From a virus (lineage: Duplodnaviria > Caudoviricetes): DNA of 64,000 nt. The DNA is taken from IMG/VR virus record IMGVR_UViG_3300037195_001552, positions 697 to 64,696 of that record. One strand, written 5' to 3'. The notes under the pieces are model-generated. The model saw only the letters and a program-made list of their open reading frames with translations. It had not been told where the DNA came from and did not search any database. A program made the translations under genes and the position numbers. This document shows, in pieces, positions 12,700 to 45,732 of the stretch. The stretch's first letter is position 1. Each line of letters begins with the position of its first letter.

Positions 12700-13100
12700 C
12701 CCTTTTTCTTATACTGCTAACTACAGGGGCGGAGTGTGGAATCGACGTTGCGAGAAAGGGCCAAGTTCGAACCCCACCGCCCATTGTCCGCTTGAACCAG
12801 ACAGTCTTCAACCTCGGTGATAAAGCCGTCTTTTGGATCGATTCCCCTGTACCTGTTTCCCCCGTTATCTACGATTTTCAATCAAGAGGTTGGGTAAAGA
12901 TATTTCCCAACAGTTTTGAAACTTTTTGGATGAAAAGCCGAGGGAAAATTCCTTCGACAAACAAGTATTTTATGAGAATATTTCCAGGAAGAACCCCGTT
13001 TCCACATCGTTACAAAGTCATCGTCGACGGCAGAGCGCATATTTTACCTTATCGCATACGTAAATCCAATTTACAGGACCACGCTGGGCGTTTACGCTAA
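12681..13100 (+). CDS. hypothetical exported protein
   Basis: Signal-like N-terminus (LTLFLILLTTGAEC); lower GC than its neighbours. Confidence 0.5.
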   Translation: MARVALTLFLILLTTGAECGIDVARKGQVRTPPPIVRLNQTVFNLGDKAVFWIDSPVPVSPVIYDFQSRGWVKIFPNSFETFWMKSRGKIPSTNKYFMRIFPGRTPFPHRYKVIVDGRAHILPYRIRKSNLQDHAGRLR

Positions 13101-13116
13101 TGTTTAGAGGGAAGAA

Positions 13117-13443
13117 ATGAGCATAGTTTATATCGTGCAGGAACCTGCCAACCGGAACTTTACTCCGGCTAAGAAGTACGGAAAACTGAAATCTCTTGTG
13201 CCGGATAGGGTACAAGTACAGATTTCGGCTGCTCCGGTTATTCGCCGTTTACGCGGTGAACTTAAAGATTTCTCAAACAACGATTATTTACTTCTTTCTG
13301 GTGATCCCATCATAATCGGTCTCGCTATAGTCGTAGCGGGCGAAAATAACATGGGTCGAATAAACGTGCTGAAATGGGACAAACAGGAGAAGACGTATAA
13401 TCCAATCGAAATTGACCTATACCCAAAAGAGGGTGATAAATGA
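13117..13443 (+). CDS. conserved hypothetical replication-module protein
   Basis: Good RBS; VYIVQE...NF..A.KYG.L...DYLLLSGDP pattern is common next to SNF2 genes in such phages. Confidence 0.7.
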   Translation: MSIVYIVQEPANRNFTPAKKYGKLKSLVPDRVQVQISAAPVIRRLRGELKDFSNNDYLLLSGDPIIIGLAIVVAGENNMGRINVLKWDKQEKTYNPIEIDLYPKEGDK

Positions 13444-14000
13444 ACGACATATTTGCAGAAATGGAAGCCGACGCCTTAGACGCTTCGGCAATTCCAGACG
13501 ACAAGAAATTGGAAGGTGTCGCCGGGCTTGCTCAAGACATGATCCAACTGGAAAAGCAAATCAACGATACGGAAGACCATCTGAAAGATCTAAAGCGTCA
13601 ACATCAGATTATTCAGACCGGCAAGCTGCCTGAAGCCCTAATCGAACTGGGCCTAACCGGCTTGCCAATGGAGGACGGGGTTACCATCGAGGTGAAGCCG
13701 TTCGTAAGTGCCAGTATCTCCAAGGCAAACAGGGAAGAGGCGTATCAGTGGCTGATGGATAACGGCCACGGAGACATCATCAAAAACCTTGTTTCGGTGG
13801 ATGTTGGTAAGGATTCAGAGCAAGCCAAGCTGGCTCTGGATGTTCTCCGCAACGCGGGCCTGGAACCTTCTAATGATAAGAAGGTCCATCCGCAGACGCT
13901 TAAGGCGTTTGTGCGAGAACAGGTCGAAAAGGGAACGCCCATACCCTTAGAGCTCCTCGGAGCATACCTTGGGCAAAAAGCGACCATCAAAAGGAAATGA
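13440..14000 (+). CDS. hypothetical replication-module protein
   Basis: Coiled coil plus WLMDNGHGDIIKN...VHPQTLKAFVREQ, a family seen upstream of phage SSB-like genes. Confidence 0.7.
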   Translation: MNDIFAEMEADALDASAIPDDKKLEGVAGLAQDMIQLEKQINDTEDHLKDLKRQHQIIQTGKLPEALIELGLTGLPMEDGVTIEVKPFVSASISKANREEAYQWLMDNGHGDIIKNLVSVDVGKDSEQAKLALDVLRNAGLEPSNDKKVHPQTLKAFVREQVEKGTPIPLELLGAYLGQKATIKRK

Positions 14001-14788
14001 AAATGGCAAAGAAGAGCACTGCCGTTGCCAAGCGCAACGGAGATCGACTTCCTGTCGATCTCGCAACGGAGATGGAAGCGGATGCTGGCGACGGCTTCCA
14101 AGATGTTACCACACAGGATATGGCGATCCCGTTCCTACGTATCCTTCAGAGCATGTCGCCCCAGCTCAATAAACGGGACGGAAGTTACGTGGCGGGAGCC
14201 GAAGAAGGTCAGATCTTCAACACGGTGACCGGCGAATTGTGGGACGCCGATAAGGGGGTAAACGTTGTCCCCTGCGCCTTCAAGGCCAAAAAGATTGAGT
14301 GGCGTCCGCGGGACTCCGGCGGGGGTTTTGTGGCCGCGCACTCTCGGGATGTAAAGATTCCCACGGAAAAGAACGACAAGGGCAAGGATGTCATGGAAAA
14401 TGGCAACCTTTTGGTGGACACCACCGAGTTCTACGTTCTTATTCTTAGCGATAACGGCTTTGCCGAACAGGCCGTAATCACCATGTCGTCCACCCAGCTC
14501 AAGTACAGCCGGAAGTGGATCACGCTTATGGCGCAGCAACTCATTGATACGAAGGAGGGCCAAAAGCGGGCTCCCTTCTACAGCAGCGTCTACAACATGA
14601 AGACCATGGGCGAGAGCAACGCCGATGGCGACTGGTCAAGCTGGGACATTGGCTTGGTGGGTCATATTCCTGACGTTCCGACCTATCACACCGCCAGGGC
14701 GTTTGCCCGTGCCGTGGAGGACGGTGACGTGGAGGCCAAGCACGTTGCACCGGACGAAGGAGAAGAAACCACCTCCGACGTGATGTGA
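13997..14788 (+). CDS. single-stranded DNA-binding / recombination-like protein
   Basis: DMAIPFLRILQSMSPQ motif, acidic C-terminal tail, and position before the primase. Confidence 0.6.
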   Translation: MKMAKKSTAVAKRNGDRLPVDLATEMEADAGDGFQDVTTQDMAIPFLRILQSMSPQLNKRDGSYVAGAEEGQIFNTVTGELWDADKGVNVVPCAFKAKKIEWRPRDSGGGFVAAHSRDVKIPTEKNDKGKDVMENGNLLVDTTEFYVLILSDNGFAEQAVITMSSTQLKYSRKWITLMAQQLIDTKEGQKRAPFYSSVYNMKTMGESNADGDWSSWDIGLVGHIPDVPTYHTARAFARAVEDGDVEAKHVAPDEGEETTSDVM

Positions 14789-14795
14789 ACTATCC

Positions 14796-14829
14796 AACCC
14801 CGCGCCCGACGGCGCGGGGTTCTTTCTTT
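14796..14829 (+). terminator. intrinsic terminator
   Basis: Stem AACCCCGCGCC/GGCGCGGGGTT, loop CGAC, followed by CTTTCTTT. Confidence 0.7.
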
Positions 14830-14843
14830 CCGGAGGCGGCGGC

Positions 14844-16394
14844 ATGAGTCTGGCAGAACGTATGCTCAATCTATTTCGTGGGATGGATGAGGCCCACGGC
14901 GTTTACCTGTTGAACGAAGAAGAGAAGGAAGCAGAAGAAGGAGAGAAGCAGACCGGAACGGCCTTCACCAAACGCGCCCCGGTTACGGTCCAACTCTGGC
15001 ACCAGCATCTGAAAGGCGAGGAGCCATTGGGAATTATCCCAATCAATCGTCACAATATGTGTGTCTGGGGGGCCATTGACATAGATAGTTATCAGTTAGA
15101 TCTTAAGCAATTTGCTCAGAAAATTTATTCCGCGGGCCTACCGCTATTTCCCTGCCGAAGCAAGTCCGGAGGATGTCACCTAGTGTTGTTTTTGAAAGAA
15201 CCTGTGGCGGCGGGCACTCTTCAAGTGAAACTGGCCGAAATTTCCGCATTTTTGGGATTTGGCCAATCGGAAATTTTCCCAAAACAGCGGCAAGTTCTCG
15301 TTGAAAAGGGGGACATGGGCAATTGGTTGAACATGCCTTACTTCGGCGGAGATCGTAGCAATCGGTACTGCTTGGATAAAAACGGTAAAGCCATGAAATT
15401 GGCTGTTTTCTTAAAGATGGCAGAAGAAGACAGGATTACAGAAGCTGAGTTGGAAAACATTCAGCTTATTCCATTAGACACAGACCTTGGTGACGGTCCC
15501 CCTTGCCTACAGTGCCTTATTTCACAGGGTTTTCCGGAAGGAACACGGAATAATGGCCTTTTCAATCTTGGGGTTTATTGTCGTAAAGCCTTCCCAGACG
15601 AATGGGCCTCAAAAGTGGATGAATTCAATGGCAAATATATGTCCCCACCATTGCTGTCACGAGAAGTACAGTCACTGACTAAACAGTTAGATAAAAAAGA
15701 TTATCAATATAAATGTAACGATCAACCCCTGGCCGGGTTCTGCAATATTTCGGTTTGTCGCACACGACCTTTTGGCATTGGTGGAGCTGCCATGCCTCTG
15801 ATGACGGCCTTAAGAAAAATTCCCACTGATCAGCCCGTGTGGTTTCTTCAAGTCAATGACACAACACTTGAATTATCTACCGATGAACTTCAGGTACAGG
15901 GTAAGTTTCAAAAAGCGTGTATGAATGCGATGAATTACATGCCACCGAAAATATCGGAACGGCAGTGGCGAGGAATTATTCAAAGTCTTTTAGATAAATG
16001 TCACCATATGGATAAACCGGAAGAAGCCAGTATCTCAGATCAATTTTTTGAGCTGGTTCAAGCGTTTTGTACAGATATGAGACTTCAGGCCCAAACAAGA
16101 GAAGAATTATTGTTGGGCCGACCGTTTGAAGGACTTAACCCAGATAATATGGAAATCAAATGCGTATTCTTTAGATTAAGAGATTTAATTGAATTTACGG
16201 TAAGGAACGGTTTTAAATACTACACCCGATCGCAAGCCAGCGCACAACTTCAAGGGGAACGGTTGATGGCGAAGCAAAAGTTTCTTAAGATAAAGGGGGT
16301 GGGGGTGAACGCTTGGTATATAGATTTTCACATATTTGAAGCTATAGATGAAGCCTACGAATTACCGGACATGGGGGGTGAGGATGTCCTTTAG
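14844..16394 (+). CDS. DNA primase (prim-pol-like N-terminus, PriCT-like C-terminus)
   Basis: WGAIDID and RSKSGGCHL AEP-like motifs; GPPCL...RNNGLFNLGVY helical domain. Confidence 0.75.
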   Translation: MSLAERMLNLFRGMDEAHGVYLLNEEEKEAEEGEKQTGTAFTKRAPVTVQLWHQHLKGEEPLGIIPINRHNMCVWGAIDIDSYQLDLKQFAQKIYSAGLPLFPCRSKSGGCHLVLFLKEPVAAGTLQVKLAEISAFLGFGQSEIFPKQRQVLVEKGDMGNWLNMPYFGGDRSNRYCLDKNGKAMKLAVFLKMAEEDRITEAELENIQLIPLDTDLGDGPPCLQCLISQGFPEGTRNNGLFNLGVYCRKAFPDEWASKVDEFNGKYMSPPLLSREVQSLTKQLDKKDYQYKCNDQPLAGFCNISVCRTRPFGIGGAAMPLMTALRKIPTDQPVWFLQVNDTTLELSTDELQVQGKFQKACMNAMNYMPPKISERQWRGIIQSLLDKCHHMDKPEEASISDQFFELVQAFCTDMRLQAQTREELLLGRPFEGLNPDNMEIKCVFFRLRDLIEFTVRNGFKYYTRSQASAQLQGERLMAKQKFLKIKGVGVNAWYIDFHIFEAIDEAYELPDMGGEDVL

Positions 16395-17928: not shown

Positions 17929-18183
17929 ATGCCCAGAAATACCGATACGGTTGCTATCGATGTGGAATCCGTTGTTCGGATTCCGAAAGAGACCGAGGCC
18001 AAGCCCAGGCGGGAAGGCTCCAAGGTCGCCAATTTCTACGCCGCGTACAAGGATGGTATAACCGTCGCCAAGTGGCTGGAGGCCGTTCGCCCGCTCGGCG
18101 GTGGTCTTTCCAATCTTCGGAAGGACCTCAAGGTCGGCCGGATCACGCTGGAAGCTCCCAAAGCGAGCAAGAAGGCGGCATAA
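17929..18183 (+). CDS. small basic putative DNA-binding protein (distant homolog of 39413 and 40388)
   Basis: Pattern RxG[ST]...G.TV..[WY]...G.ITL is shared with the two ORFs at 39.4 and 40.4 kb. Confidence 0.6.
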   Translation: MPRNTDTVAIDVESVVRIPKETEAKPRREGSKVANFYAAYKDGITVAKWLEAVRPLGGGLSNLRKDLKVGRITLEAPKASKKAA

Positions 18184-18228: not shown

Positions 18229-18247
18229 ATTTGTGGAAGGAGCTGAA

Positions 18248-18553
18248 ATGAGTAAAGCCACCCACGAAAAGATCGCAGACGACGCCCTGGCGCGTATTGC
18301 GAAACTGAAGACGTTAAATACTGACGCCCTGGCCAAGATCAAAGATCTGCAAGAGCAGGTTGAAACGGCGGATAGACATATGATGTCCTACGCTGATGCG
18401 GCGGATACGGCTGTTGAAGCCTTGATCCCCCTCCAAGCTCGACTGGATGAAGCCAACATCCTTCTCCGCCAAGCAGTTGACAAACAACTGGTGTCGCCCT
18501 ACGCTGGCACCTGGATCACGGACGTGAAGGCGTATTTTTATGAGACTTCCTGA
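18248..18553 (+). CDS. hypothetical coiled-coil protein
   Basis: GGAG RBS; overlaps the next gene. Confidence 0.6.
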   Translation: MSKATHEKIADDALARIAKLKTLNTDALAKIKDLQEQVETADRHMMSYADAADTAVEALIPLQARLDEANILLRQAVDKQLVSPYAGTWITDVKAYFYETS

Positions 18554-19394
18554 ATTCTACGGCTTTATGAAGGAGCGGGAGCAAATCCGGCTCAACCGGG
18601 AGGCCGGTAAGCCTTGGCCTTGGACTGATGACCCCATACTTCAGGAGTATAAGTTCACCAACGTGAAGCGGGCACATGATCGGACGACCCGTTGGTTTTG
18701 GAGTGTGCTGGATGAACACAAGGACGACCCTCCTGCTCATCTGTTGTTCAATTGCGCTGTTTTTCGTTATTTTGGAACTATAGAATTCTCCAAGCGCATC
18801 GGCTGGATTTCCAGTTGGGATGAGAACCAAAAGAACATCATCAAGAACAGAGCCAAGGACATGTTGTCCAAGAAGCAAAAGGTGTTCACCGGGGCCTATG
18901 TCATAACGAACCAGGGCATCAAAGCCCCGAAGCAAGAAGTCGTCGTCGATATCTTCCTGGAGGGCCTGTTTTTCCGTCTCAAGGCGTTAACCAAGATCGC
19001 CCATGAAACAAGCCGCTGGGAACTGGTCGCCAAGGAGATGATGGAAATCCAAGGCTTCGGTGGCACCGGCTTCATGACCAAGGAGGTTCTTCAGGATGCG
19101 ATGCACACACGAGTCCTTAGCGACTGCACGGATCGTAATACGTGGTGTCCTGTCGGTCCTGGTGCCCGTCGTGGACTTAATCGGGTTCTTCGCCGGGATG
19201 TGAAAGCTCCCTTGTCGAAAGACGAAGGTCTTTATCACATGAAAGGTATTTTCGAAGAACGAGACGGCTACTGGCCTACGAACTGGGTGAAGCTTGAACT
19301 CCACGACATTCAGTTCCAGCTTTGCGAATTCGACAAGTACGAAAGAGTGCGCCTTGGCCAAGGTCGCCCGCGGAGCAAGTATAGGAGAAAATAG
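18540..19394 (+). CDS. aGPT-pyrophosphorylase / 5-hmdU DNA kinase helical-domain family protein
   Basis: EREQIRL...PWTDDPILQEYKFTNVKRAHDR N-terminus, GPGARRGL helix-hairpin motif and CEFDKYERV...GRPRSKY C-terminus. Confidence 0.8.
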   Translation: MRLPEFYGFMKEREQIRLNREAGKPWPWTDDPILQEYKFTNVKRAHDRTTRWFWSVLDEHKDDPPAHLLFNCAVFRYFGTIEFSKRIGWISSWDENQKNIIKNRAKDMLSKKQKVFTGAYVITNQGIKAPKQEVVVDIFLEGLFFRLKALTKIAHETSRWELVAKEMMEIQGFGGTGFMTKEVLQDAMHTRVLSDCTDRNTWCPVGPGARRGLNRVLRRDVKAPLSKDEGLYHMKGIFEERDGYWPTNWVKLELHDIQFQLCEFDKYERVRLGQGRPRSKYRRK

Positions 19395-19709: not shown

Positions 19710-21053
19710 ATGAAAATCCTAATAGCATTTCACGATTTGATGGACCTGGGGGGTATCATCAATAATCAGGAGGACTTGTACGCCGGACTGACCGAGCTAG
19801 GTCATTCCGTCGATACGGTCAAACTGATCTGGAAACCCCGGATCACCACCACCCGCACACGGACCAAGCCCTCACGGGTCGTTGGCAAGATGGGCTGGCC
19901 TATGGATCAAAACGGCGGCTGGGTCTGGCCTCACAGCGCAAAGATCCCATACAAGGGCGCGGGGCCGATGCACCGCTGGAAGGAGCGCGCCAGCAAGTAC
20001 GATCTGATTATTTGGCAGATCCCAGTGCCCTCCAAGAATAAGAATAACCGGGGTAATGCAGACTGGCTGGAACTCTATAATATACCCGTCAAGCAGATCG
20101 CCTACGTCCACGACGGCAACTTCCCCGCACGATACCCCTGGCTCTACGCAATCAAGGACCATCTCTGTGGCGTCGGAGCGACGCACCCGTGCGGGTATCA
20201 TTCATTGGCGAATATTGACCTGCCACGGGCCTTGTTCTTTACGTCCCAGGCTGATCAGGAAGAGCGAAATGCTGGGGCGGGGTTTCGCGATCGGCAGCCG
20301 GGGTGGTTTTCGCTGCAGACCTTCAAGGGCTGGAAGCATGTTGATGATCTGGTGCGGGCAGTGCCTTACATGGATATTGGGGTGTCTCCGACAATTTTAG
20401 CCGGGGGCGGTATTCAGTGGTACTACATGACTTCCAAGGACAAGTGTAAACCCGAATATTTGGTAAATCTTAAGAATGACCCAGACGCCACGGACCAGTA
20501 TATCGGACAACGTATTTGGGAACGGGCGATTGAATGCGAGCTAGACTACAGGGGGTATATTCAAAATGTCGAACGGGAAGAGATACTCTCAAACGTCCGG
20601 TTCCTTATCGATCCTTCGTGGTCGGCGAAATTTGCTAAATTTGGTGACCATCCTAATCGCGTGTCTATTGATGCTCTCATTAATGGCGCTGTCCCTATTG
20701 CCCGAAATCATGGAATCGCTGGATCTGATAATGGAATAGGTGAATTCTTTAAGGCGGGGTTGAACTATGTCATGATCCCGTGGGACGCTACGCCGAAGGA
20801 ATTCGCCGAACATGTCGATGAAGCGATGAATATGGGCGAGAATACCTTTAACGACATGCTGCACGAAGGTCGTAAGGTGGCGGCGCTTTGGGATAACCGG
20901 GTGGTCGCCCAACACTTTATTGACATGGCTGAGGGTCGGCCCTCTGGTGTTTGGAAAACGCCAGATGACCGAGGTACGTTCAAACAGGAACTCGCCGATA
21001 AAAGCAAGCAGATGCTGGAGGAATTCTTTAATGCGAACGATACACGCACGTAA
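19710..21053 (+). CDS. GT-B fold glycosyltransferase (putative DNA-modifying)
   Basis: MKILIAFH...GGI N-terminus; KGWKHVDDLVRAV, ILAGGG and DALINGAVPI sugar-nucleotide motifs. Confidence 0.7.
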   Translation: MKILIAFHDLMDLGGIINNQEDLYAGLTELGHSVDTVKLIWKPRITTTRTRTKPSRVVGKMGWPMDQNGGWVWPHSAKIPYKGAGPMHRWKERASKYDLIIWQIPVPSKNKNNRGNADWLELYNIPVKQIAYVHDGNFPARYPWLYAIKDHLCGVGATHPCGYHSLANIDLPRALFFTSQADQEERNAGAGFRDRQPGWFSLQTFKGWKHVDDLVRAVPYMDIGVSPTILAGGGIQWYYMTSKDKCKPEYLVNLKNDPDATDQYIGQRIWERAIECELDYRGYIQNVEREEILSNVRFLIDPSWSAKFAKFGDHPNRVSIDALINGAVPIARNHGIAGSDNGIGEFFKAGLNYVMIPWDATPKEFAEHVDEAMNMGENTFNDMLHEGRKVAALWDNRVVAQHFIDMAEGRPSGVWKTPDDRGTFKQELADKSKQMLEEFFNANDTRT

Positions 21054-22065
21054 CGTCAACGATGCCTTTACCGTAGGGGTGCGTATGTTGCTGTCTGACG
21101 GCTTTCGACAGCCGTCGAGGGTGGGTGAGGTGCTTACCATGGGCGGGCCTGTAACCACCACTTACGAGTGCCCCAGGGAGCGTGTGCTGTTCCACGAGGC
21201 CCGTGACGCCAACCCCTTTTTCCACCTGATGGAAAGCCTGTGGATGCTGGCGGGCCGTGACGATGTTAAGTGGATTTCTGAGTTCTCCTCGGGAATCAGC
21301 CAGTTCAGCGATGATGGTGTATCCTTTCACGGGGCTTACGGGTTTAGGTGGCGTAATCACTTTGACTTTGATCAGCTCAAGTCCATTCAGCATGTTCTGG
21401 AAGAAGATCCTAATAGTCGGCGAGCGATACTCGGCATGTGGGATCCGAACTGCGACCTGGGAGGCTTCGGCAAGGACTACCCCTGTAACTTATCCATAGC
21501 CTTTCGTATTCGGCATGAACGGCTGGATATGACGGTGTTTAATCGTTCCAACGATATCATCTGGGGGGCTTACGGCGCGAACGCGGTGCATATGTCCGTT
21601 CTCCAAGAAATCCTTGCGGGGCTCCTTGGTGTAAAAGTCGGTCGCTACTACCAAGTGTCCAACGACTATCACGCCTACGTCGATGTCATCGGCAAGTTGG
21701 GAGAAGTCCAACCTCATCCAATGTGCCCGTATGATAACGGCACCGTGCGGTTTCATAATATGGTGCCTTACCCAGAGGATTGGTTCAAGGATCTTGAACT
21801 ATTCATAAAAGATGGGGGATACCTTTCGCCTGTTGAATACAGCAACCCGTTTTTCGGTGGTGTCGCTTTGCCGATGATCAGGGCGTGGAGACATTGGAAA
21901 AGGAAACATTTCTTAGACGCCCTTACGGAAGTTGGGATGATAACCGCGCCGGATTGGCGCTTTGCTTGTGACGCATGGATAAGGAGGCGATATGAACGAT
22001 ACGTACAAGCGGATAAGAGCGGGGGGACGCGTACGAAGGTGGCACACGATACCGGTCATCAATGA
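21031..22065 (+). CDS. thymidylate synthase-family enzyme, probable dUMP hydroxymethylase
   Basis: SRRAILGMWDP, catalytic YPCN, RSNDIIWGAYGAN (Asn at the dUMP-specificity position) and HAY. Confidence 0.8.
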   Translation: MRTIHARNVNDAFTVGVRMLLSDGFRQPSRVGEVLTMGGPVTTTYECPRERVLFHEARDANPFFHLMESLWMLAGRDDVKWISEFSSGISQFSDDGVSFHGAYGFRWRNHFDFDQLKSIQHVLEEDPNSRRAILGMWDPNCDLGGFGKDYPCNLSIAFRIRHERLDMTVFNRSNDIIWGAYGANAVHMSVLQEILAGLLGVKVGRYYQVSNDYHAYVDVIGKLGEVQPHPMCPYDNGTVRFHNMVPYPEDWFKDLELFIKDGGYLSPVEYSNPFFGGVALPMIRAWRHWKRKHFLDALTEVGMITAPDWRFACDAWIRRRYERYVQADKSGGTRTKVAHDTGHQ

Positions 22066-22495
22066 GGAAACCGTCGCCCATCATAGCTGGGGCGTGGCTA
22101 CCGTTCTATTGGCTCTTTGGCCAGATTGCTCTCGTGAGTTGCTTGTTGCTGCTCTTTATCATGACGTGCATGAGTCTGTTACTGGTGATATTCCTAAACC
22201 TGCTTTCTGGCGTAACCCAAATCTGGCGGACGTTGTCGACGATATTGAAGAAGATGTTCAGCGTGAATTAGGAATTACTCCCGCCCTTACTGACAAGGAA
22301 AAGGAGCAGCTCGCTATAGCCGATATGTTTGATCTTTGTTTCAGATGCGAGGAAGAAATTCTTCTGGGTAATAAAAGTTTTGAAGATATTCTGCGGGCGG
22401 CATCGGCGTGGCTCTGGGGTGTTAAGCTAGAAGGTGCGGCTGAGAAAATGAGAAGTTCTTTTAGAAATTGGATGAAGGAACGAGGCATTCTATAG
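21992..22495 (+). CDS. HD-domain 5'-deoxynucleotidase (YfbR-like)
   Basis: VRRWHT...ETVAHHSW, LYHDVHESVTGDIP, ADMFD. Confidence 0.85.
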   Translation: MNDTYKRIRAGGRVRRWHTIPVINEETVAHHSWGVATVLLALWPDCSRELLVAALYHDVHESVTGDIPKPAFWRNPNLADVVDDIEEDVQRELGITPALTDKEKEQLAIADMFDLCFRCEEEILLGNKSFEDILRAASAWLWGVKLEGAAEKMRSSFRNWMKERGIL

Positions 22496-38611: not shown

Positions 38612-39079
38612 GTGAAGATATTGGACGGCGTGGAGAAGGGGCTCGTCAACGGGAAAGGGAGGGCGGTGAGTCGGACGTTGTTGGAGGAAACCCTCCACGA
38701 GCTGGAGGGCGATATAGCCAGCGTCGCCGACCGCCTCGGCCTCGATTATATTCCCCTGAATCATCACATTTACAAAGACTATCGCCTCCGGGATATCTGC
38801 CTCGGCTATCGTCAGTCGTTAGTGGACATGGCCGAGGGAGTAGTTCGCGGCGAACTTCGTCAAAGGAGTTTCAAGGCAGCAAAGTTTGTCTTATCAACAT
38901 TGGGAAAAGACCGAGGCTATGTACCGAAAACAGAATCCCAATCAACACAGATAGTCCATAAGACAGAGTCCAAAATGGATCTGACAAAGCTCTCGCCCGA
39001 AAAACTACGCCAGCTACGCGGTCTCGTAGAGGAAGCGAACCAGGAGCCGGTGACGATCGACCAGATCCCCGACGAATAG
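38612..39079 (+). CDS. terS: terminase small subunit (putative)
   Basis: N-terminal HTH-like segment, AAKFVLSTLGKDRGY motif and DLTKLSPEKLRQL tail; AAGGAGG RBS. Confidence 0.65.
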   Translation: MKILDGVEKGLVNGKGRAVSRTLLEETLHELEGDIASVADRLGLDYIPLNHHIYKDYRLRDICLGYRQSLVDMAEGVVRGELRQRSFKAAKFVLSTLGKDRGYVPKTESQSTQIVHKTESKMDLTKLSPEKLRQLRGLVEEANQEPVTIDQIPDE

Positions 39080-39086
39080 CCGACCA

Positions 39087-39114
39087 TCTCAAGATTCGAC
39101 AAGCGCGCATAATA
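39087..39114 (+). repeat. 28-bp direct repeat, copy 1 (copy 2 at 40122-40149)
   Basis: TCTCAAGATTCGACAAGCGCGCATAATA is exact in both copies and heads each ~1-kb duplicated unit. Confidence 0.9.
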
Positions 39115-39332
39115 ATCTAGGGATGATGGATTATCTTTTCAGAGACACCGGTCACGATCACTCTCACGTGTCCATAGAATGTCGCTCGGCAACCATGGAT
39201 TGTCGTTGTCACTCTCTCTTCTTCTCTTCCCTCAGGATTATGCCATAATCCTGACCGGATCATCTCCCCCCCACGCTACGAGAGACATGGGCCGTTACTG
39301 GCACAATCGTCAGGATTTTGGCCATTATCCCG

Positions 39333-39361
39333 TTGCCATGACGCTTGCCATGGGGTACCAT
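39333..39361 (+). promoter_or_regulatory. sigma70-like promoter of paralog A
   Basis: TTGCCA-17 nt-TACCAT. Confidence 0.65.
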
Positions 39362-39412
39362 GGTTACAGTTACATTGCAGTGATGTAACAGCCATGAGAA
39401 AGGATTAATGAC

Positions 39413-39790
39413 ATGGCATCCAAGACCCAAAAGACCGAGACCCCCGCCCCTGCCGTCCGCGCGACGGATCTTACCGCCTGCAAGATCGTGGTCAAGGACC
39501 CCAAGGCGTCCGCCGCCCTGGTGGACCGTCACAGCCGGGCGCGCACCGCGAGAAACCAGCGGTGGCACATCCTGGTCAGCATGGACGGCAAGACCATTGC
39601 CGACTACTACAAGGCGGCGAGGGAGGCTGGCGTCCCGGTCTCGGCCAACAATCCCATCCGGGCCGCGTCCTTGGGGATCATCGGCTTGGTCACCGCGTCG
39701 GGTGACGACTGGACCAAGGCCAATACGGCGGCTGTCCTGAAACACGCACCCGCCGCTGTCCGCAAGCAGTTGGCTGCGTCCGCCAAGTAG
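39413..39790 (+). CDS. small basic protein, paralog A (normal codon usage)
   Basis: 125 aa; AGAAAGG RBS; aligns along its length with 40388-40714. Confidence 0.8.
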   Translation: MASKTQKTETPAPAVRATDLTACKIVVKDPKASAALVDRHSRARTARNQRWHILVSMDGKTIADYYKAAREAGVPVSANNPIRAASLGIIGLVTASGDDWTKANTAAVLKHAPAAVRKQLAASAK

Positions 39791-39802
39791 CCTATCAACC
39801 AC

Positions 39803-39834
39803 GGCCAGGGTCTTCGGACCCTGGCCATCTTTTT
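39803..39834 (+). terminator. intrinsic terminator
   Basis: 10-bp stem GGCCAGGGTC/GACCCTGGCC, UUCG loop, then ATCTTTTT. Confidence 0.8.
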
Positions 39835-39842
39835 GGAGAAGT

Positions 39843-40049
39843 GTGATGAAGCACTCCCGCAAGCCCGGTGTCTTGAGTAAGGACGGCACACCCTACGCGC
39901 CTTCGTCACTGTTCGTCGTTAATAAAGACGGATGGCAGACTCCTTATAACTATACTCCGCAATCTGTCCTTGCCGCGTTTTTGAGCGACAAGGTCGTGAA
40001 GATTATTCTTACGACGGAGGACAATGTGGAGCACACCGTCGTGAAGTAG
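39843..40049 (+). CDS. small hypothetical protein
   Basis: GGAG RBS; bounded by two terminators. Confidence 0.5.
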   Translation: MMKHSRKPGVLSKDGTPYAPSSLFVVNKDGWQTPYNYTPQSVLAAFLSDKVVKIILTTEDNVEHTVVK

Positions 40050-40058
40050 TTTGTCATG

Positions 40059-40088
40059 AGCCCCGCTGTCTATGGACGGCGGGGTTTT
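40059..40088 (+). terminator. intrinsic terminator
   Basis: AGCCCCGCTGTC-TATG-GACGGCGGGGTT followed by TT. Confidence 0.65.
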
Positions 40089-40121
40089 GATTTGCCTAGA
40101 CTGCCGATGAATCGCCGATGG

Positions 40122-40149
40122 TCTCAAGATTCGACAAGCGCGCATAATA
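40122..40149 (+). repeat. 28-bp direct repeat, copy 2
   Basis: Exact match to 39087-39114. Confidence 0.9.
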
Positions 40150-40312
40150 TTCGCATGAGGACGAGAGACGATCGGTCGTCTTCCGATCACGACTACGATA
40201 CACATATCAATGGATCCACCGCCAGCCGCCGGTGTCCGGATTTTAGCATAATCCTGACGCGGACGCTTGCCGCCGGGCAAAAGGTGACGTCCTAATTTTC
40301 GCTGCTATTTTG

Positions 40313-40341
40313 TTGCCATGCCGGGTGCCATGGGCTAACAT
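40313..40341 (+). promoter_or_regulatory. sigma70-like promoter of paralog B
   Basis: TTGCCA-17 nt-TAACAT, entirely inside the GA/TC-free island. Confidence 0.65.
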
Positions 40342-40387
40342 GTACGTACATTGCATATGGCAATGCACACAAGCAAAGGGTAAGCAC

Positions 40388-40714
40388 ATGTTTAACACAT
40401 GCAAAATTACTACCAACAAAAACACGGTTGCCACGTTGGCGGCTGCCGCACGGCCCGGCACGGCCCGTGCCCAGCGGTGGGCCATACTGGCCACTATGGG
40501 CGGCCAAACGGTAGCCGCCTACTACGCCAAGTGCCGGGCGGCGGGTTGCCCGGTAAGTAGTAATAACCCCATACGCGCTGCCGCGCTGGGGGCCATAACG
40601 CTAACCTTGCCCAACGGCACCAATTGGGCAACGGCCAACCCGGCCACGCTGGCCAAACATGCCCCGGCCAGCATACGTAAGGCCATGCTGGCCAAGGCGG
40701 CTGCGGCCAAGTAG
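40388..40714 (+). CDS. small basic protein, paralog B (GA/TC-free, no Asp/Glu)
   Basis: 108 aa from MFNTCK; RBS AAAGGG; TAG stop; homologous to 39413-39790. Confidence 0.8.
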   Translation: MFNTCKITTNKNTVATLAAAARPGTARAQRWAILATMGGQTVAAYYAKCRAAGCPVSSNNPIRAAALGAITLTLPNGTNWATANPATLAKHAPASIRKAMLAKAAAAK

Positions 40715-40722
40715 CCGGGCCA

Positions 40723-40774
40723 GCCGGGCCGGGGGCGCGGTGCCCCCGGCCCGGCACCCCCAAAAAAATTTTGG
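40723..40774. other. 14-bp perfect GC hairpin followed by C5-A7-T4 tract
   Basis: GCCGGGCCGGGGGC-GCGGT-GCCCCCGGCCCGGC, then ACCCCCAAAAAAATTTTGG. Confidence 0.8.
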
Positions 40775-40887: not shown

Positions 40888-41625
40888 ATGTCCGCACTCG
40901 ATAAGATCATTCGTCAACTTCCTTTTGAAAAGCTTCTCAAGCTTTTTAAGTCCACCTCTCGTGGACGAGGCGCCCTTTCCAATCTTTCTCCTGAAGGTAT
41001 CAATTCACTTCGAACCCGATCTCCCAATGAAAGGACAGCACTCAGTACTCCTCGAGAATTCTTGAATCTCGCATACCCTGTTGAAAAATGGAGTTCGCCT
41101 GAAGATAGATTCCTGATAGATCAAATTAAAGACAATTGGGATCAAGGGCTTAATAATATTCCCATACTGGGAATTGAACGATTCCCCATGTCCCATATTA
41201 CAGATCCTTTCATACGCGAACTCTCAAAAGATATCTCACAATATGAAGATGCTTTTGAAATGACAGCAACTGAATCTAACCGTCATCTATTTGATTTAAA
41301 TCTTCGAAAAATGTTTGACAAACGTCGTCAATATCAAGAAAAAGCGTATGAGTCGGATATAGCAGCGGTGACTGGACATGAGGGGCGACATAGGGCAAAA
41401 CTAGTGGCCGAAGAGTACGGTGAAGATTTTCCTTTTATCTTTAATCTTTCCGATGATTTAAATTCCCCCGTATTTTATGACGATAAACTTCTTCCTGTTC
41501 CTCGCATACTCTACGATGAATCATTACCAGCAGACTTTGATCCTTTCAATCTTCCTCTCCCACGAAACATGCCCGATATTCTCGGCGCCCTCCCACGCCC
41601 CACCGACAAGCGCAAGTTCGCCTAA
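40888..41625 (+). CDS. ParB/Srx-like domain protein, array member 1
   Basis: MSALDKIIR start, PREFLNLAYP, IPILG, GHEGRHRA. Confidence 0.6.
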   Translation: MSALDKIIRQLPFEKLLKLFKSTSRGRGALSNLSPEGINSLRTRSPNERTALSTPREFLNLAYPVEKWSSPEDRFLIDQIKDNWDQGLNNIPILGIERFPMSHITDPFIRELSKDISQYEDAFEMTATESNRHLFDLNLRKMFDKRRQYQEKAYESDIAAVTGHEGRHRAKLVAEEYGEDFPFIFNLSDDLNSPVFYDDKLLPVPRILYDESLPADFDPFNLPLPRNMPDILGALPRPTDKRKFA

Positions 41626-41627
41626 CC

Positions 41628-42266
41628 ATGCCCGCCCTTGACAAATTAATTAGACGACTCGCTTCTTCAGAAGTTCTCGAAAAACTTTTGTCCACGCCCC
41701 GTGGCCGACAGGCGCTCTCACTTCTTGATCCACAAGCTCATCAAAATATTCTTCGCCGGGATCCCTATTCCATGCACGCGATTTCATCTCCTCGAGAATT
41801 CCTCGATCTAGCGTATCCCGTCAAGGATTGGAATCACCCCGAGGAAATCGCAAAGATCAAAGCTATCCGTGATAACTGGGGGGCTGGACTTCGTGAAATT
41901 CCCTTCCTCGCTACTCAACGTCACAAAGAATATATGCGAGATACTTTTGATGATCTTGACTACGAAGTATACCCCCCGTCTTTTCTAAAATGGTTGGATA
42001 CCCCACGAAACATGCCTCTTATCGATGATCACCAGGGCAGGCACCGCGCGAAATTGATAGAGCAACAGTACGGCCCTGAACATCCTTTTCTTATTGAGTT
42101 AGAATTAGGTGAAGATGTTTTTTCAAATCCCCAAACCAGGATTTTTCCTGAAAATTATCTAGATCGTATAATTGATTTCCCAGACAAAGATCCCACCCGT
42201 CCCCCTCTCAAGGATATCCTCGGCACTCTCCCTCCCTCCTCCGCTGCCCTAACCGATGTAGCCTGA
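41628..42266 (+). CDS. ParB/Srx-like domain protein, array member 2
   Basis: MPALDKLIR start, PREFLDLAYP, IPFL, DHQGRHRA. Confidence 0.6.
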   Translation: MPALDKLIRRLASSEVLEKLLSTPRGRQALSLLDPQAHQNILRRDPYSMHAISSPREFLDLAYPVKDWNHPEEIAKIKAIRDNWGAGLREIPFLATQRHKEYMRDTFDDLDYEVYPPSFLKWLDTPRNMPLIDDHQGRHRAKLIEQQYGPEHPFLIELELGEDVFSNPQTRIFPENYLDRIIDFPDKDPTRPPLKDILGTLPPSSAALTDVA

Positions 42267-42652
42267 TGCCCGCCCTTGATAAACTTCTTCGTTTACCCCA
42301 AGTTCGAAGGGCCATTGAACGATTGCTCATTGATCCCCCTTCTAATCGCAATCGATATGCGGGAGGTTCGCTAGATTCCAACATATTGTCATTCCATGAA
42401 GATCCCCCGCTTCCCCGACAACGTGCTCCAAAGCTGGGATCTTTTACTCGAGAACTCAAACGAAACTATTCTTCGCCCTTTATGGTTGATAAATCATCCT
42501 CGCCTCCTTCCCCGGCTATGATACAACGGGCGATTGACTTCTCAGATCCGTATATCTTCTATCACGACCGTCCACGACTTCTCGATCTTCCCTCTGACAC
42601 CAATATATCCGATATACTCCCGAATTGGGAAGAATGGCTGAAATCCCAGTGA
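42266..42652 (+). CDS. array member 3 (shares MPALDKL N-terminus, different interior)
   Basis: MPALDKLLR start and a C-terminal SDIL motif like members 1 and 2. Confidence 0.6.
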   Translation: MPALDKLLRLPQVRRAIERLLIDPPSNRNRYAGGSLDSNILSFHEDPPLPRQRAPKLGSFTRELKRNYSSPFMVDKSSSPPSPAMIQRAIDFSDPYIFYHDRPRLLDLPSDTNISDILPNWEEWLKSQ

Positions 42653-43347
42653 CCGTTCTTCCCGGCCCCAACACTCGCCCTTCCCACCCCAGCCCTTTTC
42701 AACTGACTGGACTTTATCGGAAACTTCTCACGGAACTTCCCGCACCGGTCCTTGACACTATTCGAAAAATTATGATTCAACTTGAAAAGGATGCGTTGAA
42801 AAAACGTTCTCCCAGTCTCGAACACATGGGATTCGGTGTTTCTCGCCCCAGCTTCCCCGAACCCCTAGGAATTCAGCGAGGAGCTCCCGGCCAAGTTCAA
42901 ATCCCCGATGAATCTGAAGCTATGGAGTTTCTCACCACCCCCTTTGACCCTGAAACCAGACTTTTCACTGTTCATCCTCATTCAGACATCATGCGAAACG
43001 CAGAGACAAAAGAACTCTTTGAAAACCCGCTCCATGAGTTTTTCTCACCTAGCGATCTTCAGTTCATGGAACACCCCCAACTTCCGAATAGGTTCAACAC
43101 AGAACATTTCAAGTTCAAAGGGCGTGCGCTACCTGAAGTTTCCCCTGGGGATCCCACTATTCGATCATATCGTCCGAAGTATCCGGGCCGTAATCGCCGA
43201 GAACTCGTCGAGAATCTTTTCCCCGAAGGCCGCTGGCTAGATGAACTGGACTATGGTATACCGATCACTTCAGATCCCACCGCTATCGCCAAGCGATGGG
43301 AAGATCTAGCCAAAGACGATTGGTTTGATTATACGATCTTTGAATAA
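42634..43347 (+). CDS. JAB/MPN-like protein, array member 4
   Basis: EHMGFG...FTVHPH...FSPSD; C-terminal DDWFDYTIFE. Confidence 0.55.
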   Translation: MAEIPVTVLPGPNTRPSHPSPFQLTGLYRKLLTELPAPVLDTIRKIMIQLEKDALKKRSPSLEHMGFGVSRPSFPEPLGIQRGAPGQVQIPDESEAMEFLTTPFDPETRLFTVHPHSDIMRNAETKELFENPLHEFFSPSDLQFMEHPQLPNRFNTEHFKFKGRALPEVSPGDPTIRSYRPKYPGRNRRELVENLFPEGRWLDELDYGIPITSDPTAIAKRWEDLAKDDWFDYTIFE

Positions 43348-43363
43348 GGTTAGGAGCTCTCCC

Positions 43364-43777
43364 ATGACTTCCCCCTCCACCACGATCATGATCAACCGCG
43401 AGGATTTCGACGCTCACGCCTCCGATCCCTCAAAATTCGAGTCCTACCTCCGATCCCGTGGGAAACCGCCTACCTTCCCCTACACGACCAACGGTCGTCG
43501 AGTGACTTGGGGACCCCCGGCCCCCACCGACGACGCCCCCACCGACGAAGACCTCGGCGTCGACACGCCCACGGCCCCCGCCCCCACGGGTTCTTCTTCC
43601 TCTGCAACGGCAGACGAGGACGACAAACCGTTGCCCCTGACAGACATAGATTTCACCAAGTTCAACAAGACGCAGCTCCGCGACTGGATCTTCCAGCAAA
43701 CGTCCACTCGTCCGCCGCGCTTCCACAAGAAGGACACTCTCATCGCCACCGCCGTCCAGATCCAAAACGATGGCTAG
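43364..43777 (+). CDS. protein with C-terminal Rho-N/HeH-like helical motif
   Basis: Low-complexity linker, then FTKFNKTQLRDWI...KKDTLIATA. Confidence 0.55.
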   Translation: MTSPSTTIMINREDFDAHASDPSKFESYLRSRGKPPTFPYTTNGRRVTWGPPAPTDDAPTDEDLGVDTPTAPAPTGSSSSATADEDDKPLPLTDIDFTKFNKTQLRDWIFQQTSTRPPRFHKKDTLIATAVQIQNDG

Positions 43778-44405
43778 TCTCCCACCACCCGGCGCACGTC
43801 CTCAGTCACCTCCACCCCTCTACCAGTTGGCAGGGTTCAAACGACGTGCGCTTGAAGACCTTTCAGCCCCGGTGCTGGATGCTATCGCTAAAATTCAAAA
43901 ATTAATATCTCAGGAAAAGAAAATTCTCAATAGAGAATTCTTAGGATATGGATTTCAAGATCCAAAAAACAGTTCTCTTGAAGACATTATATGGGGTCAA
44001 GAAGATAAAGTCTTAGTACTACCGGGTTCGCCGTTCGATATTTTTCAAAAACAGAGCCATTTCGGTAAAAGACCCTTTACCGTTCATAATCACTTGGAAG
44101 GTGAACCTCCTTCAGAAGAAGATCTTAATCAGGCTTTTTGGCCCGACCATAGATCCCGTTTTCGTGGAGAACACTATAATTTTGGGAATCTTTTGAATTC
44201 CACCCCCCGTGCCGAAAGCATTCAGGCTCTTCCGAAAATAGAAAGTTATGATCCTGAATATTTTAGACGATGGAAACGTGGGTTGGATCTAGGTATGGCA
44301 GAAGAAATTTACGGCGAAGACTTTGATCTACCCGACCATGTCATACGTGAAAATCTACGCCGCTTCGCCGATGAAGATTGGTTCAACTACACCGTTTTCG
44401 AATAA
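43770..44405 (+). CDS. JAB/MPN (RadC-like) protein, array member 5
   Basis: REFLGYG...FTVHNHLEGEPPSEED; ends EDWFNYTVFE. Confidence 0.7.
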   Translation: MASLPPPGARPQSPPPLYQLAGFKRRALEDLSAPVLDAIAKIQKLISQEKKILNREFLGYGFQDPKNSSLEDIIWGQEDKVLVLPGSPFDIFQKQSHFGKRPFTVHNHLEGEPPSEEDLNQAFWPDHRSRFRGEHYNFGNLLNSTPRAESIQALPKIESYDPEYFRRWKRGLDLGMAEEIYGEDFDLPDHVIRENLRRFADEDWFNYTVFE

Positions 44406-44407
44406 TC

Positions 44408-45103
44408 ATGGCCTCCCTTCCCCCACCTTCTTATCGCCCCCAGCACCCTGATCTATTTCAGCGGGCGAAGTTTTTGCGGCGAGGATTACAGGACCTTCCT
44501 GCGCCGGTACTAGATGCTATTGCTAAGATCAAAAAGGCGTTGGAACGAGATTTTCGTAATCGTGACATTATCGATCGCGAATATTTCGGGTATGGCTATG
44601 AAGGTACGTCACCCTTATCCAGGATAATTAGGGGTGAAAAAAATGCAGTTGAGATTAAACCGGGCAGTGATGAGCATAATTTCATGACCTTCCCCGAAAG
44701 CCCTGTTCTCGTGCGCCCGGATAGATTCTCCCTTCATAATCATCCTCATTTGCAAGATAAACCGGGTCAAGGATTCATGCTTGGTAATCTAGAACATTCG
44801 AAAAACTTTTCTACGGGGGATATTGAAGGATTCATGTCTCCGCAATTTTCAAATAGATTCAAAACAAATAATTATCTGATGGTGGGTGAAGCCAATGATC
44901 CCGTAACTCCGCTAGGAGCGGAAGCGATTACGTCTCTTAGGCTTAAACCCCATCCTAATCGTTTTCGATCGCAAGAACATCTGTGGAATACAATAGGTCC
45001 ACAGATCTATGGAAAATCTACCCCCCACACACCTGAAGAGGTTCAAAGGCAGTTTCGTGAAAAGGCCCTCGAGGATTACTTTGATTTCACCGTTTTCGAA
45101 TAA
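44408..45103 (+). CDS. JAB/MPN (RadC-like) protein, array member 6
   Basis: REYFGYG...FSLHNHP...NFSTGD; ends EDYFDFTVFE. Confidence 0.65.
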   Translation: MASLPPPSYRPQHPDLFQRAKFLRRGLQDLPAPVLDAIAKIKKALERDFRNRDIIDREYFGYGYEGTSPLSRIIRGEKNAVEIKPGSDEHNFMTFPESPVLVRPDRFSLHNHPHLQDKPGQGFMLGNLEHSKNFSTGDIEGFMSPQFSNRFKTNNYLMVGEANDPVTPLGAEAITSLRLKPHPNRFRSQEHLWNTIGPQIYGKSTPHTPEEVQRQFREKALEDYFDFTVFE

Positions 45104-45105
45104 CG

Positions 45106-45732
45106 ATGGCTAGTCTCCCGCCCCCCGGCTATCGCCCCCAGCACCCTGATCCATTTCAGCGGGCGAAGTTCCTTCGTCGATCTCTTAGAGATATCCCCGC
45201 CCCTGTGCTGGACGCTATCGCCCGAATACAAAAGTTGATCGCACGGGAAAAACTCATCCCCGATCGAGAATTTTTAGGATTTGGTTATCAAGACAAAGGG
45301 CTATTAGGGATACATAAGGGTCAGCAGGATATGATCATGACGCCCCCTAATTCTCCTTACGGTAGATTTCAAACAAAAAATCACCCCACTGGCTCTAAAC
45401 CATTCACCATTCATAATCACCCTGGTGCGGAGCCTCCTTCAGAACAGGACTTTAATGCGGGTTGGAACCCCCCGTTCCCATACAATAAGACTGCCGAACA
45501 CTATCAATTTCCCAGTGATCTAAAGAACTCTCCATTTGTTGAAAGTTTTCAGCAAACACCAAAAACCCGTGAATGGGATCCAAAATCCTTCGAAAGGTGG
45601 CCCCGTGGTATTGACCTAGGCATGGGCGAAACAATCTATGGGGAAGACTTCGATCTACCCGACCATGTCATACGTGAAAACCTACGCCGCCTAGCCGACG
45701 AAGATTGGTTCAACTATACAGTCTTCGAATAA
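45106..45732 (+). CDS. JAB/MPN (RadC-like) protein, array member 7
   Basis: REFLGFG...FTIHNHPGAEPPSEQD; ends EDWFNYTVFE. Confidence 0.7.
   Translation: MASLPPPGYRPQHPDPFQRAKFLRRSLRDIPAPVLDAIARIQKLIAREKLIPDREFLGFGYQDKGLLGIHKGQQDMIMTPPNSPYGRFQTKNHPTGSKPFTIHNHPGAEPPSEQDFNAGWNPPFPYNKTAEHYQFPSDLKNSPFVESFQQTPKTREWDPKSFERWPRGIDLGMGETIYGEDFDLPDHVIRENLRRLADEDWFNYTVFE

Follow-up and report, generated by a model that had tools for sequence, protein, structure and literature searches.

Avoidance of short motifs is known in phage genomes, and specific 4-8 bp host restriction sites are avoided in phage T5 by its first-step-transfer (pre-early) DNA and in phage T7 by its leading early region. In phages that hypermodify 5-hydroxymethyl-2'-deoxyuridine (5-hmdU), the modification is sequence-specific (PMC8989533, PMC5889632). 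The resistant sites found in M6, ViI and PhiW-14 share TG or TC (PMC6449724), and the mark of phage SH-Ab 15599 is placed mostly at TG and less at TC (PMC13458397); we found in these papers no mention of a region kept free of the target dinucleotide. Here we describe a locus in which a complete transcription unit is free of GA and TC on both strands. It lies in the IMG/VR record IMGVR_UViG_3300037195_001552 (64,696 bp, estimated complete); coordinates refer to the window, the stretch of 64,000 nt that corresponds to positions 697-64696 of this record. The source is an uncultured marine phage, and the exact product of the purged gene, B, is present on 13 contigs, with Tara Oceans marine assemblies among them. 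About 1 kb upstream of B lies its paralog A, in DNA of normal composition. An earlier reading of these two genes (the original prediction) had proposed that B is a recoded copy of A which gave up its acidic residues to satisfy a constraint on the DNA, and that B probably serves incoming modified DNA and A newly replicated DNA.

The GA/TC-free cassette spans positions 40300-40774, with 0 GA and 0 TC over 475 nt of both strands; the next-longest gap in the genome measures 44 nt, at a mean spacing of 7.5 nt. No comparable gap exists for other dinucleotide classes (normalised score of 63 for GA/TC vs 19 or less), and genome-wide the observed/expected ratio of GA/TC is 1.06-1.08, a slight over-use with no general avoidance. 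The limits of the cassette follow transcription signals: it starts 13 nt upstream of the -35 hexamer of a putative sigma-70-like promoter (TTGCCA-17-TAACAT, 40313-40341, + strand, a consensus match), contains gene B (40388-40714, + strand; 108 amino acids, 0 GA/TC, 0 Asp/Glu, isoelectric point (pI) 11.1) and a 14-bp GC hairpin with a GCGGT loop followed by ACCCCCAAAAAAA and then TTTT (40723-40770, + strand), and ends 4 nt past this short T run. The non-coding flanks on either side of the gene are equally clean, for 88 nt up to the start codon and for 60 nt beyond the stop codon.

The lack of Asp and Glu in B results from the loss of every GA and TC step. When the B protein was back-translated 20,000 times with the codon usage of the genome, the mean was 21.9 GA/TC and the minimum 8, against 0 observed, whereas in the control with A 40.6 were expected and 43 are found in the gene (39413-39790, + strand; 125 amino acids, 9 Asp/Glu, pI 10.3). 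The codons used in B for Ser (AGT and AGC exclusively, as had been noticed before), Ile (ATA and ATT only) and Phe (TTT only) are those without TC. Since synonymous recoding never gave fewer than 8 GA/TC, the ban acts on DNA rather than on protein composition; this part of the original prediction stands, and the clean flanks and the recurrence of the purge in diverged relatives speak for it as well. Since the step is absent in both orientations and part of the clean upstream DNA is promoter sequence that is not transcribed, the economical reading is a constraint on the duplex; a constraint on protein or mRNA fits poorly.

The purge recurs in other phages. Related contigs were collected by retrieving the DNA of homologues and then scanning metagenomes with an 11-row alignment; they are cited below by locus number. 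Nearly every related marine phage contig carries one normal family member and one in a GA/TC-free cassette of 437-566 nt, and about a dozen related phages share the purge. Clean cassettes measure 566 nt in L003, 470 in L006, 437 in L009, 534 in both L010 and L011, 471 in L014, 462 in L020, 440 in L025 and 514 in L027, and those of L012, L024, L029 and L033 have one or two breaks each, all of which are Glu codons. They have a layout in common: clean DNA of 88-151 nt ahead of the start codon holds a -35/-10-like pair and a leader hairpin, and the gene, a hairpin with a T run and the first GA/TC come next. The purged stretch always contains a member of the A/B family and may lie on either strand relative to its neighbours. 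Counts of GA/TC in the coding sequences are bimodal, with 0-2 in purged and 13-61 in normal copies, and at least 14 distinct sequences have 0. Islands of other dinucleotide classes were found in none of the related loci, and 74 loci of more distant relatives, with a large terminase (TerL) 57-61% identical, have neither the A/B family nor an island.

Comparison of close relatives shows that selection is still acting. In a GA/TC-free sequence, exactly one third of single substitutions would create GA or TC, yet none was created at the 28 sites that differ between L009 and L038 (P about 1e-5) or at the 19 sites that differ between L003 and L014 (P about 5e-4). Given that no GA/TC arose among these differences, the purge is maintained by current purifying selection and is not a relic; even at DNA identities of only 51-67%, every cassette is clean. 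Within the window's own lineage, contigs from four DNA sequencing runs differ at three cassette positions (40428, 40495 and 40647), none of which makes GA/TC, three sites having no power, and the identical copies from other samples (L001, L002) show no variation. An origin by horizontal transfer from a genome of odd composition was ruled out, the purge being exact, bounded by transcription signals and maintained between close relatives. That B is a recoded copy of A is not shown by the phylogeny: the tree of 37 family members has one large, well-supported purged clade that is old, other purged copies (including B of the window) are placed with normal copies of similar phages, and a minimum of two changes of state is required by the starred branches, without a direction, the proteins being short and of biased composition.

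Some relatives are purged on one strand only. A third paralog of 89 amino acids with one Asp/Glu (L012:2902-3261, L022:1426-1785 and L021:8281-8544) has a single GA on its coding strand together with 22-27 TC, in a lineage (L012, L021, L022) that also carries a fully purged and a normal copy. Acid-free homologues in DNA of normal GA/TC content had been named in the original prediction as a sign of selection on the protein; on this point the third paralog gives a mixed answer, its many TC and single GA indicating a one-strand purge rather than unconstrained DNA. The opposite sense is seen in a 77-amino-acid homologue (L016:8487-8818, the same as L017:7933-8264), without TC over 332 nt of the coding strand and with 7 GA, 3 of them in Asp codons. 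In L028 and L030 there is an 86-amino-acid acid-free copy with 3-4 GA and 1 TC; these and the L016/L017 copies are either decaying cassettes or cases of a ban on the coding strand only. Two genes that lie immediately upstream of the L003 cassette and encode proteins of 174 and 107 amino acids (L003:8276-8586 and 8681-9096, + strand) have coding strands free of TC over 311 and 416 nt, with GA present; the pair is mirrored in L116:1407-2227, and the window has no such second stretch. These cases suggest that the strand, and hence transcription or single-stranded exposure, matters, and they keep open both a TC-specific nuclease or deaminase and an RNA-level component.

The genome also encodes enzymes expected of thymidine modification. 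An aGPT-Pplase-like protein (18540-19394, + strand) matches the Pfam family HMUDK_hel (PF18723) with E 4e-41 and 141.8 bits against a cut-off of 25, over profile positions 6-276 of 281, and is 32-36% identical to annotated aGPT-Pplases. It is accompanied by a thymidylate-synthase (TS) homologue and putative dUMP hydroxymethylase (20920-22065, + strand; Pfam Thymidylat_synt, E 6e-21), 45-47% identical over its full length to homologues of phages PhiJL001 and Sonora, and by an HD/YfbR-like 5'-deoxynucleotidase (21992-22495, + strand). The PhiJL001 record describes its TS-homologue gene as similar to the SPO1 dUMP hydroxymethylase. All three genes adjoin the DNA polymerase gene, and a matching HMUDK_hel, TS and HD cluster is present in the 66-kb genome behind the L003 cassette. 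In contrast, neither of two genomes of the sister clade, G002 (complete at 56 kb) and G003 (83% complete), contains HMUDK_hel, a TS homologue, an A/B family member or a dinucleotide-free stretch of any class; the HMUDK_hel/TS search of this clade was validated on the window genome. Purged cassette and modification genes therefore co-occur in the clade. A TS homologue and an HMUDK_hel enzyme beside the DNA polymerase gene are also what the genome shares with M6, ViI, PhiW-14 and SH-Ab 15599, whose published marks lie at TG or TC (PMC6449724, PMC13458397); it differs from them in that the kinase was not found here and that the modification is predicted from the genes.

These data lead us to propose that the B transcription unit cannot receive a TC-directed mark, likely the phage's own post-replicative thymidine hypermodification, and so would stay readable, a proposal to which we give about an even chance. 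Gene B, with its promoter and terminator, would form a self-contained unit without 5'-TC-3' on either strand, in which a TC-directed process acting on the DNA of the remaining genome would find no target. The most likely process would be post-replicative thymidine hypermodification by the phage itself, whose genes include those for a TS homologue of the dUMP-hydroxymethylase type, an aGPT-Pplase-like enzyme and an HD nucleotidase. The B cassette would then remain ordinary DNA in the virion, and host RNA polymerase could use its sigma-70-type promoter regardless of the state of the rest of the genome, in which case B may be the first gene needed, a starter on the incoming DNA. Paralog A, in normal DNA and with a near-identical promoter, would supply the same small basic protein when the DNA is in another state. 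That such a mark might hinder transcription has a physical rationale in bulky 5-substituted uracils that work as transcription switches, such as major-groove adducts (PMC4838386) and base J in kinetoplastids (PMC4150806), although these are in-vitro or eukaryotic systems. Whereas 5-hydroxymethyluracil (5-hmU) by itself increases transcription, marks made on it decrease or stop it (PMC6457204, PMC4838386, PMC4150806), and phosphorylation of 5-hmU by 5-HMUDK brings the output of E. coli RNA polymerase down to 10% of that from the 5-hmU template (PMC6457204). That a phage enzyme acting on T can read the TC step is illustrated by the dioxygenase 5mYOX97, which favours NTC (PMC13229309); the window genome has no Tet/JBP homologue.

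Several points weigh against this proposal. Transcription takes place in M6, ViI and PhiW-14 although these phages are modified. One-strand-only purges, in either sense, are not predicted by a mark that acts purely at the level of the duplex. A P-loop 5-hmdU DNA kinase was not found by tblastn with the Sonora nucleotide kinase at E 1e-3, no kinase-domain profile search having been made, so that by the standard of M6 and ViI the pathway is incomplete. The co-occurrence with modification genes amounts to one phylogenetic contrast, two genomes against two. Finally, no dinucleotide-free island exists in the two cultured phages whose HMUDK_hel homologues are nearest, PhiJL001 and Sonora, which means that such enzymes alone do not require one.

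An alternative is that the cassette escapes a TC-specific enzyme that attacks DNA, be it a host or phage nuclease, a modification-dependent restriction enzyme cutting beside a marked TC or a 5'-TC cytosine deaminase, and that the unit thereby stays intact and expressible. In TC contexts, T4 endonuclease IV cleaves 5' of dC, and deaminases of the DddA/APOBEC type prefer 5'-TC. The purge of both strands and of the non-coding flanks is what a DNA-acting enzyme would impose, and only dinucleotide specificity fits, as no restriction site of 4-8 bp demands the loss of every GA/TC; one-strand purges could be accommodated by an enzyme working on single-stranded DNA exposed by transcription. We nevertheless regard this explanation as rather improbable: neither the window nor any host yielded an enzyme of this kind, the phage would not be rescued by a 0.5-kb remnant of a cut genome, phage DNA shielded by its own mark needs no exempt unit, and the co-occurrence with thymidine-modification genes is unpredicted unless the attacker depends on modification. 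The purged stretch could otherwise be mainly a cis-acting site for replication, packaging or a nucleating DNA-binding protein that is kept unmarked, with the gene being secondary. The cumulative GC skew rises from 0 to 40 kb and then falls, with its turning point at the tandem units and not explained by the switches of gene orientation at 28 and 37.5 kb. In the window the cassette is located 5 kb upstream of the terminase gene, a distance of 2-7 kb in relatives, and the encoded protein has a winged-helix-like core. Yet in every lineage the purge tracks one gene of the same family from promoter to terminator and on either strand, the cassette, being GC-rich, is no obvious unwinding element and the repeated boxes of the locus lie outside it, which makes a cis-acting site distinctly unlikely.

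A constraint on the mRNA is a further candidate, according to which a transcript without GA and/or UC would evade a sequence-specific endoribonuclease, in the manner of ACA-less messages and MazF. The coding-strand-only purges agree with it, with UC-free messages in L016 and the two L003 genes and GA-free ones in L022/L012. It is very unlikely as an account of B, since the purge begins 88-151 nt before the start codon and covers the -35/-10 pair and the untranscribed DNA upstream of it, and since two unrelated motifs that happen to be mutually reverse-complementary would both have to be banned. Next to no weight can be given to selection for an acid-free, very basic protein with the DNA pattern as a by-product: B-type proteins do lack Asp/Glu and have a pI near 11, but this idea is contradicted by the floor of 8 GA/TC in all back-translations, by 148 nt of clean non-coding flank in total and by the TC-free Ser, Ile and Phe codons. 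Two other kinds of modification were considered and rejected. For 7-deazaguanine at GA, a search of the whole genome for the DpdA/TGT family (PF01702) gave nothing at E <= 1, with the control matching in 14 of 14 genomes, and GGC abounds in the cassette; for post-replicative T oxidation of the Tet/JBP type, Tet_JBP (PF12851) had no match at E <= 1.

Going back to a phage-encoded thymidine mark that spares B, the resemblance to the early regions of T5 and T7 is that of a small early-type unit with a host-type promoter, lacking an enzyme target found in the rest of the genome. The differences are that here every copy of a dinucleotide is lost on both strands, two amino acids are lost with it, this dinucleotide is slightly over-represented in the remaining genome and a normal paralog persists beside the purged gene. 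A limited literature search found no description of dinucleotide-free units in modified phages, and no paper on a whole promoter-to-terminator unit that lacks a dinucleotide on both strands at the cost of 2 of the 20 amino acids and with an adjacent normal paralog across a phage clade. We know of no phage that silences its own genome by bulky uracils while exempting one unit. From sequence only, the cassette reads out TC as the likely context targeted by a DNA modification or a DNA-attacking enzyme that has yet to be characterised, and it would identify the one gene that the phage cannot afford to expose. If the interpretation based on transcription were true, thymidine hypermodification would be a regulatory state besides a restriction shield, and purged cassettes would flag the genes with which the infection programme begins. 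Together, A and B offer a natural matched control, with the same fold and the same type of promoter and differing mainly in GA/TC content. A more far-reaching version, possible but doubtful, would have a dinucleotide-specific bulky thymine mark act as a genome-wide transcriptional off-state of packaged or incoming DNA, with an unmarkable ignition gene and with paralogs specific to each modification state (fully purged, template-strand-only, coding-strand-only and normal) that report the epigenetic age of the DNA, a timing circuit written in the choice of codons and amino acids.

The surroundings of the two genes largely agree with the original prediction. As it had claimed, the same 28-mer opens both units, at 39087-39114 and 40122-40149 (+ strand), and exactly these two copies exist, with no third in the window even when up to 3 mismatches are allowed. 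The shared boxes were also recovered: GACGCTTGCC is found at 39340 and 40262, and GCATAATCCTGAC-like boxes are restricted to the two units (6 matches vs 1.7 expected). A repeat search places a perfect operator-like palindrome with 11-nt arms, which includes TC/GA, upstream of the promoter of A (39231-39255), a further half-site of the GCATAATCCTGAC-like box 12 nt upstream of the -35 of A (39309-39321, - strand) and an imperfect copy of the palindrome in unit B (40235-40258, box match 40246-40258). In unit B the purge is limited to the 3' 475 nt, and the 28-mer and operator-like box, outside the purged stretch, hold GA/TC. The promoter-like sites were located where they had been predicted, that of A (TTGCCA-17-TACCAT, putative and sigma-70-like, also a consensus match) at 39333-39361 on the + strand. 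The proteins are 49% identical (E 3e-31) and the replacements of acidic residues quoted for them are correct, as are the loops of the two strong GC hairpins.

The hairpin of A is a predicted intrinsic terminator with a 10-bp stem, a TTCG loop and a T run (39803-39835, + strand); in that of B, ACCCCCAAAAAAA intervenes before the short T run, so that it does not qualify as a canonical intrinsic terminator, whereas most relatives have canonical ones. Tandem organisation in two units of about 1 kb was confirmed as regards repeats, genes and hairpins, but the units are not equal, since unit A (about 1035 nt) has an additional 68-amino-acid open reading frame (ORF) of its own without a family match (39843-40049, + strand) and is closed by a second hairpin with a T run (40053-40095, + strand; z -6.0). 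Directly outside one or both edges of the cassette, TCATGA palindromes, often repeated, were observed in L009, L010, L012, L024, L025 and L033; the window has TCAGGATTATG/CATAATCCTGA boxes in their place.

The protein encoded by A is small and basic. Its AlphaFold2 model, built on a 21-sequence alignment, has a predicted local distance difference test score (pLDDT) of 88.8 and a fold that looks winged-helix-like. No match to the model was obtained with Foldseek against the PDB at E <= 0.001, and exhaustive structural alignment (VIA-align) of residues ~20-100 gave Z 4.5-7.5 to Fur, ORC/MCM, the sigma-54 core-binding domain and RiPP recognition element (RRE) domains, a range of Z that is common by chance; structural neighbours in the Atlas are unnamed viral clusters and PqqD-like clusters. 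The resemblance to winged-helix/RRE domains (Fur, ORC/MCM, the sigma-54 core-binding domain, PqqD) is structural, with no membership of a sequence family, and with Pfam DUF6303 the score of A is 18 bits, below the cut-off of 25, and B has no match. A profile made from A and B and run against 1.8 billion proteins yielded 25 representative homologues, 5 of them without Asp/Glu. Relatives of A were absent from the cultured-phage collection (nucleotide search with the locus and protein search with A), single-protein pattern scans of IMG/VR with B and with TerL gave none or one relative, and a word-indexed protein search with A and with the family profile returned self matches almost exclusively. 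A distant third copy, homologue C (17929-18183, + strand; 84 amino acids; hhalign probability 73%, E 3e-5), lies two genes upstream of HMUDK_hel, with a 106-amino-acid ORF (18233-18553) between them. C is 51% identical to L118:4433-4678, and an 82-amino-acid homologue precedes HMUDK_hel in a second phage; these positions hint, weakly, at a link between the family and the modification genes.

Among the other products of the genome are a family-A DNA polymerase, a primase and two helicases as well as a large terminase, a portal and a major head protein; by terminase the nearest cultured phages are the Roseobacter phages CRP-901/902 (57% identity). The marine phage PhiJL001 (L125) has at 12271-16120 an aGPT-Pplase-like gene, an annotated glucosyl transferase and the TS homologue in the same order as the window, and its genome contains a 1351-nt stretch without TA. 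A 447-amino-acid protein of the window, labelled earlier as a glycosyltransferase, has no Pfam or PHROG match, no solved relative and no similarity to the PhiJL001 glucosyl transferase, and its AlphaFold2 model is unusable (pLDDT 33). Downstream of the cassette, seven tandem genes (40888-45732), for which ParB/Srx-like and JAB-like labels had been proposed, have no Pfam match at E <= 0.01, including ParB, sulfiredoxin and JAB. Neither Pfam nor PHROG gave a match for the largest ORF (8084-10888, 934 amino acids), which is located between genes for a virion protein and a helicase. Directly upstream of unit A, the gene at 38612-39079 encodes a 155-amino-acid protein with no family match that is conserved (34-36% identity) beside the A/B family in nearly all related loci.

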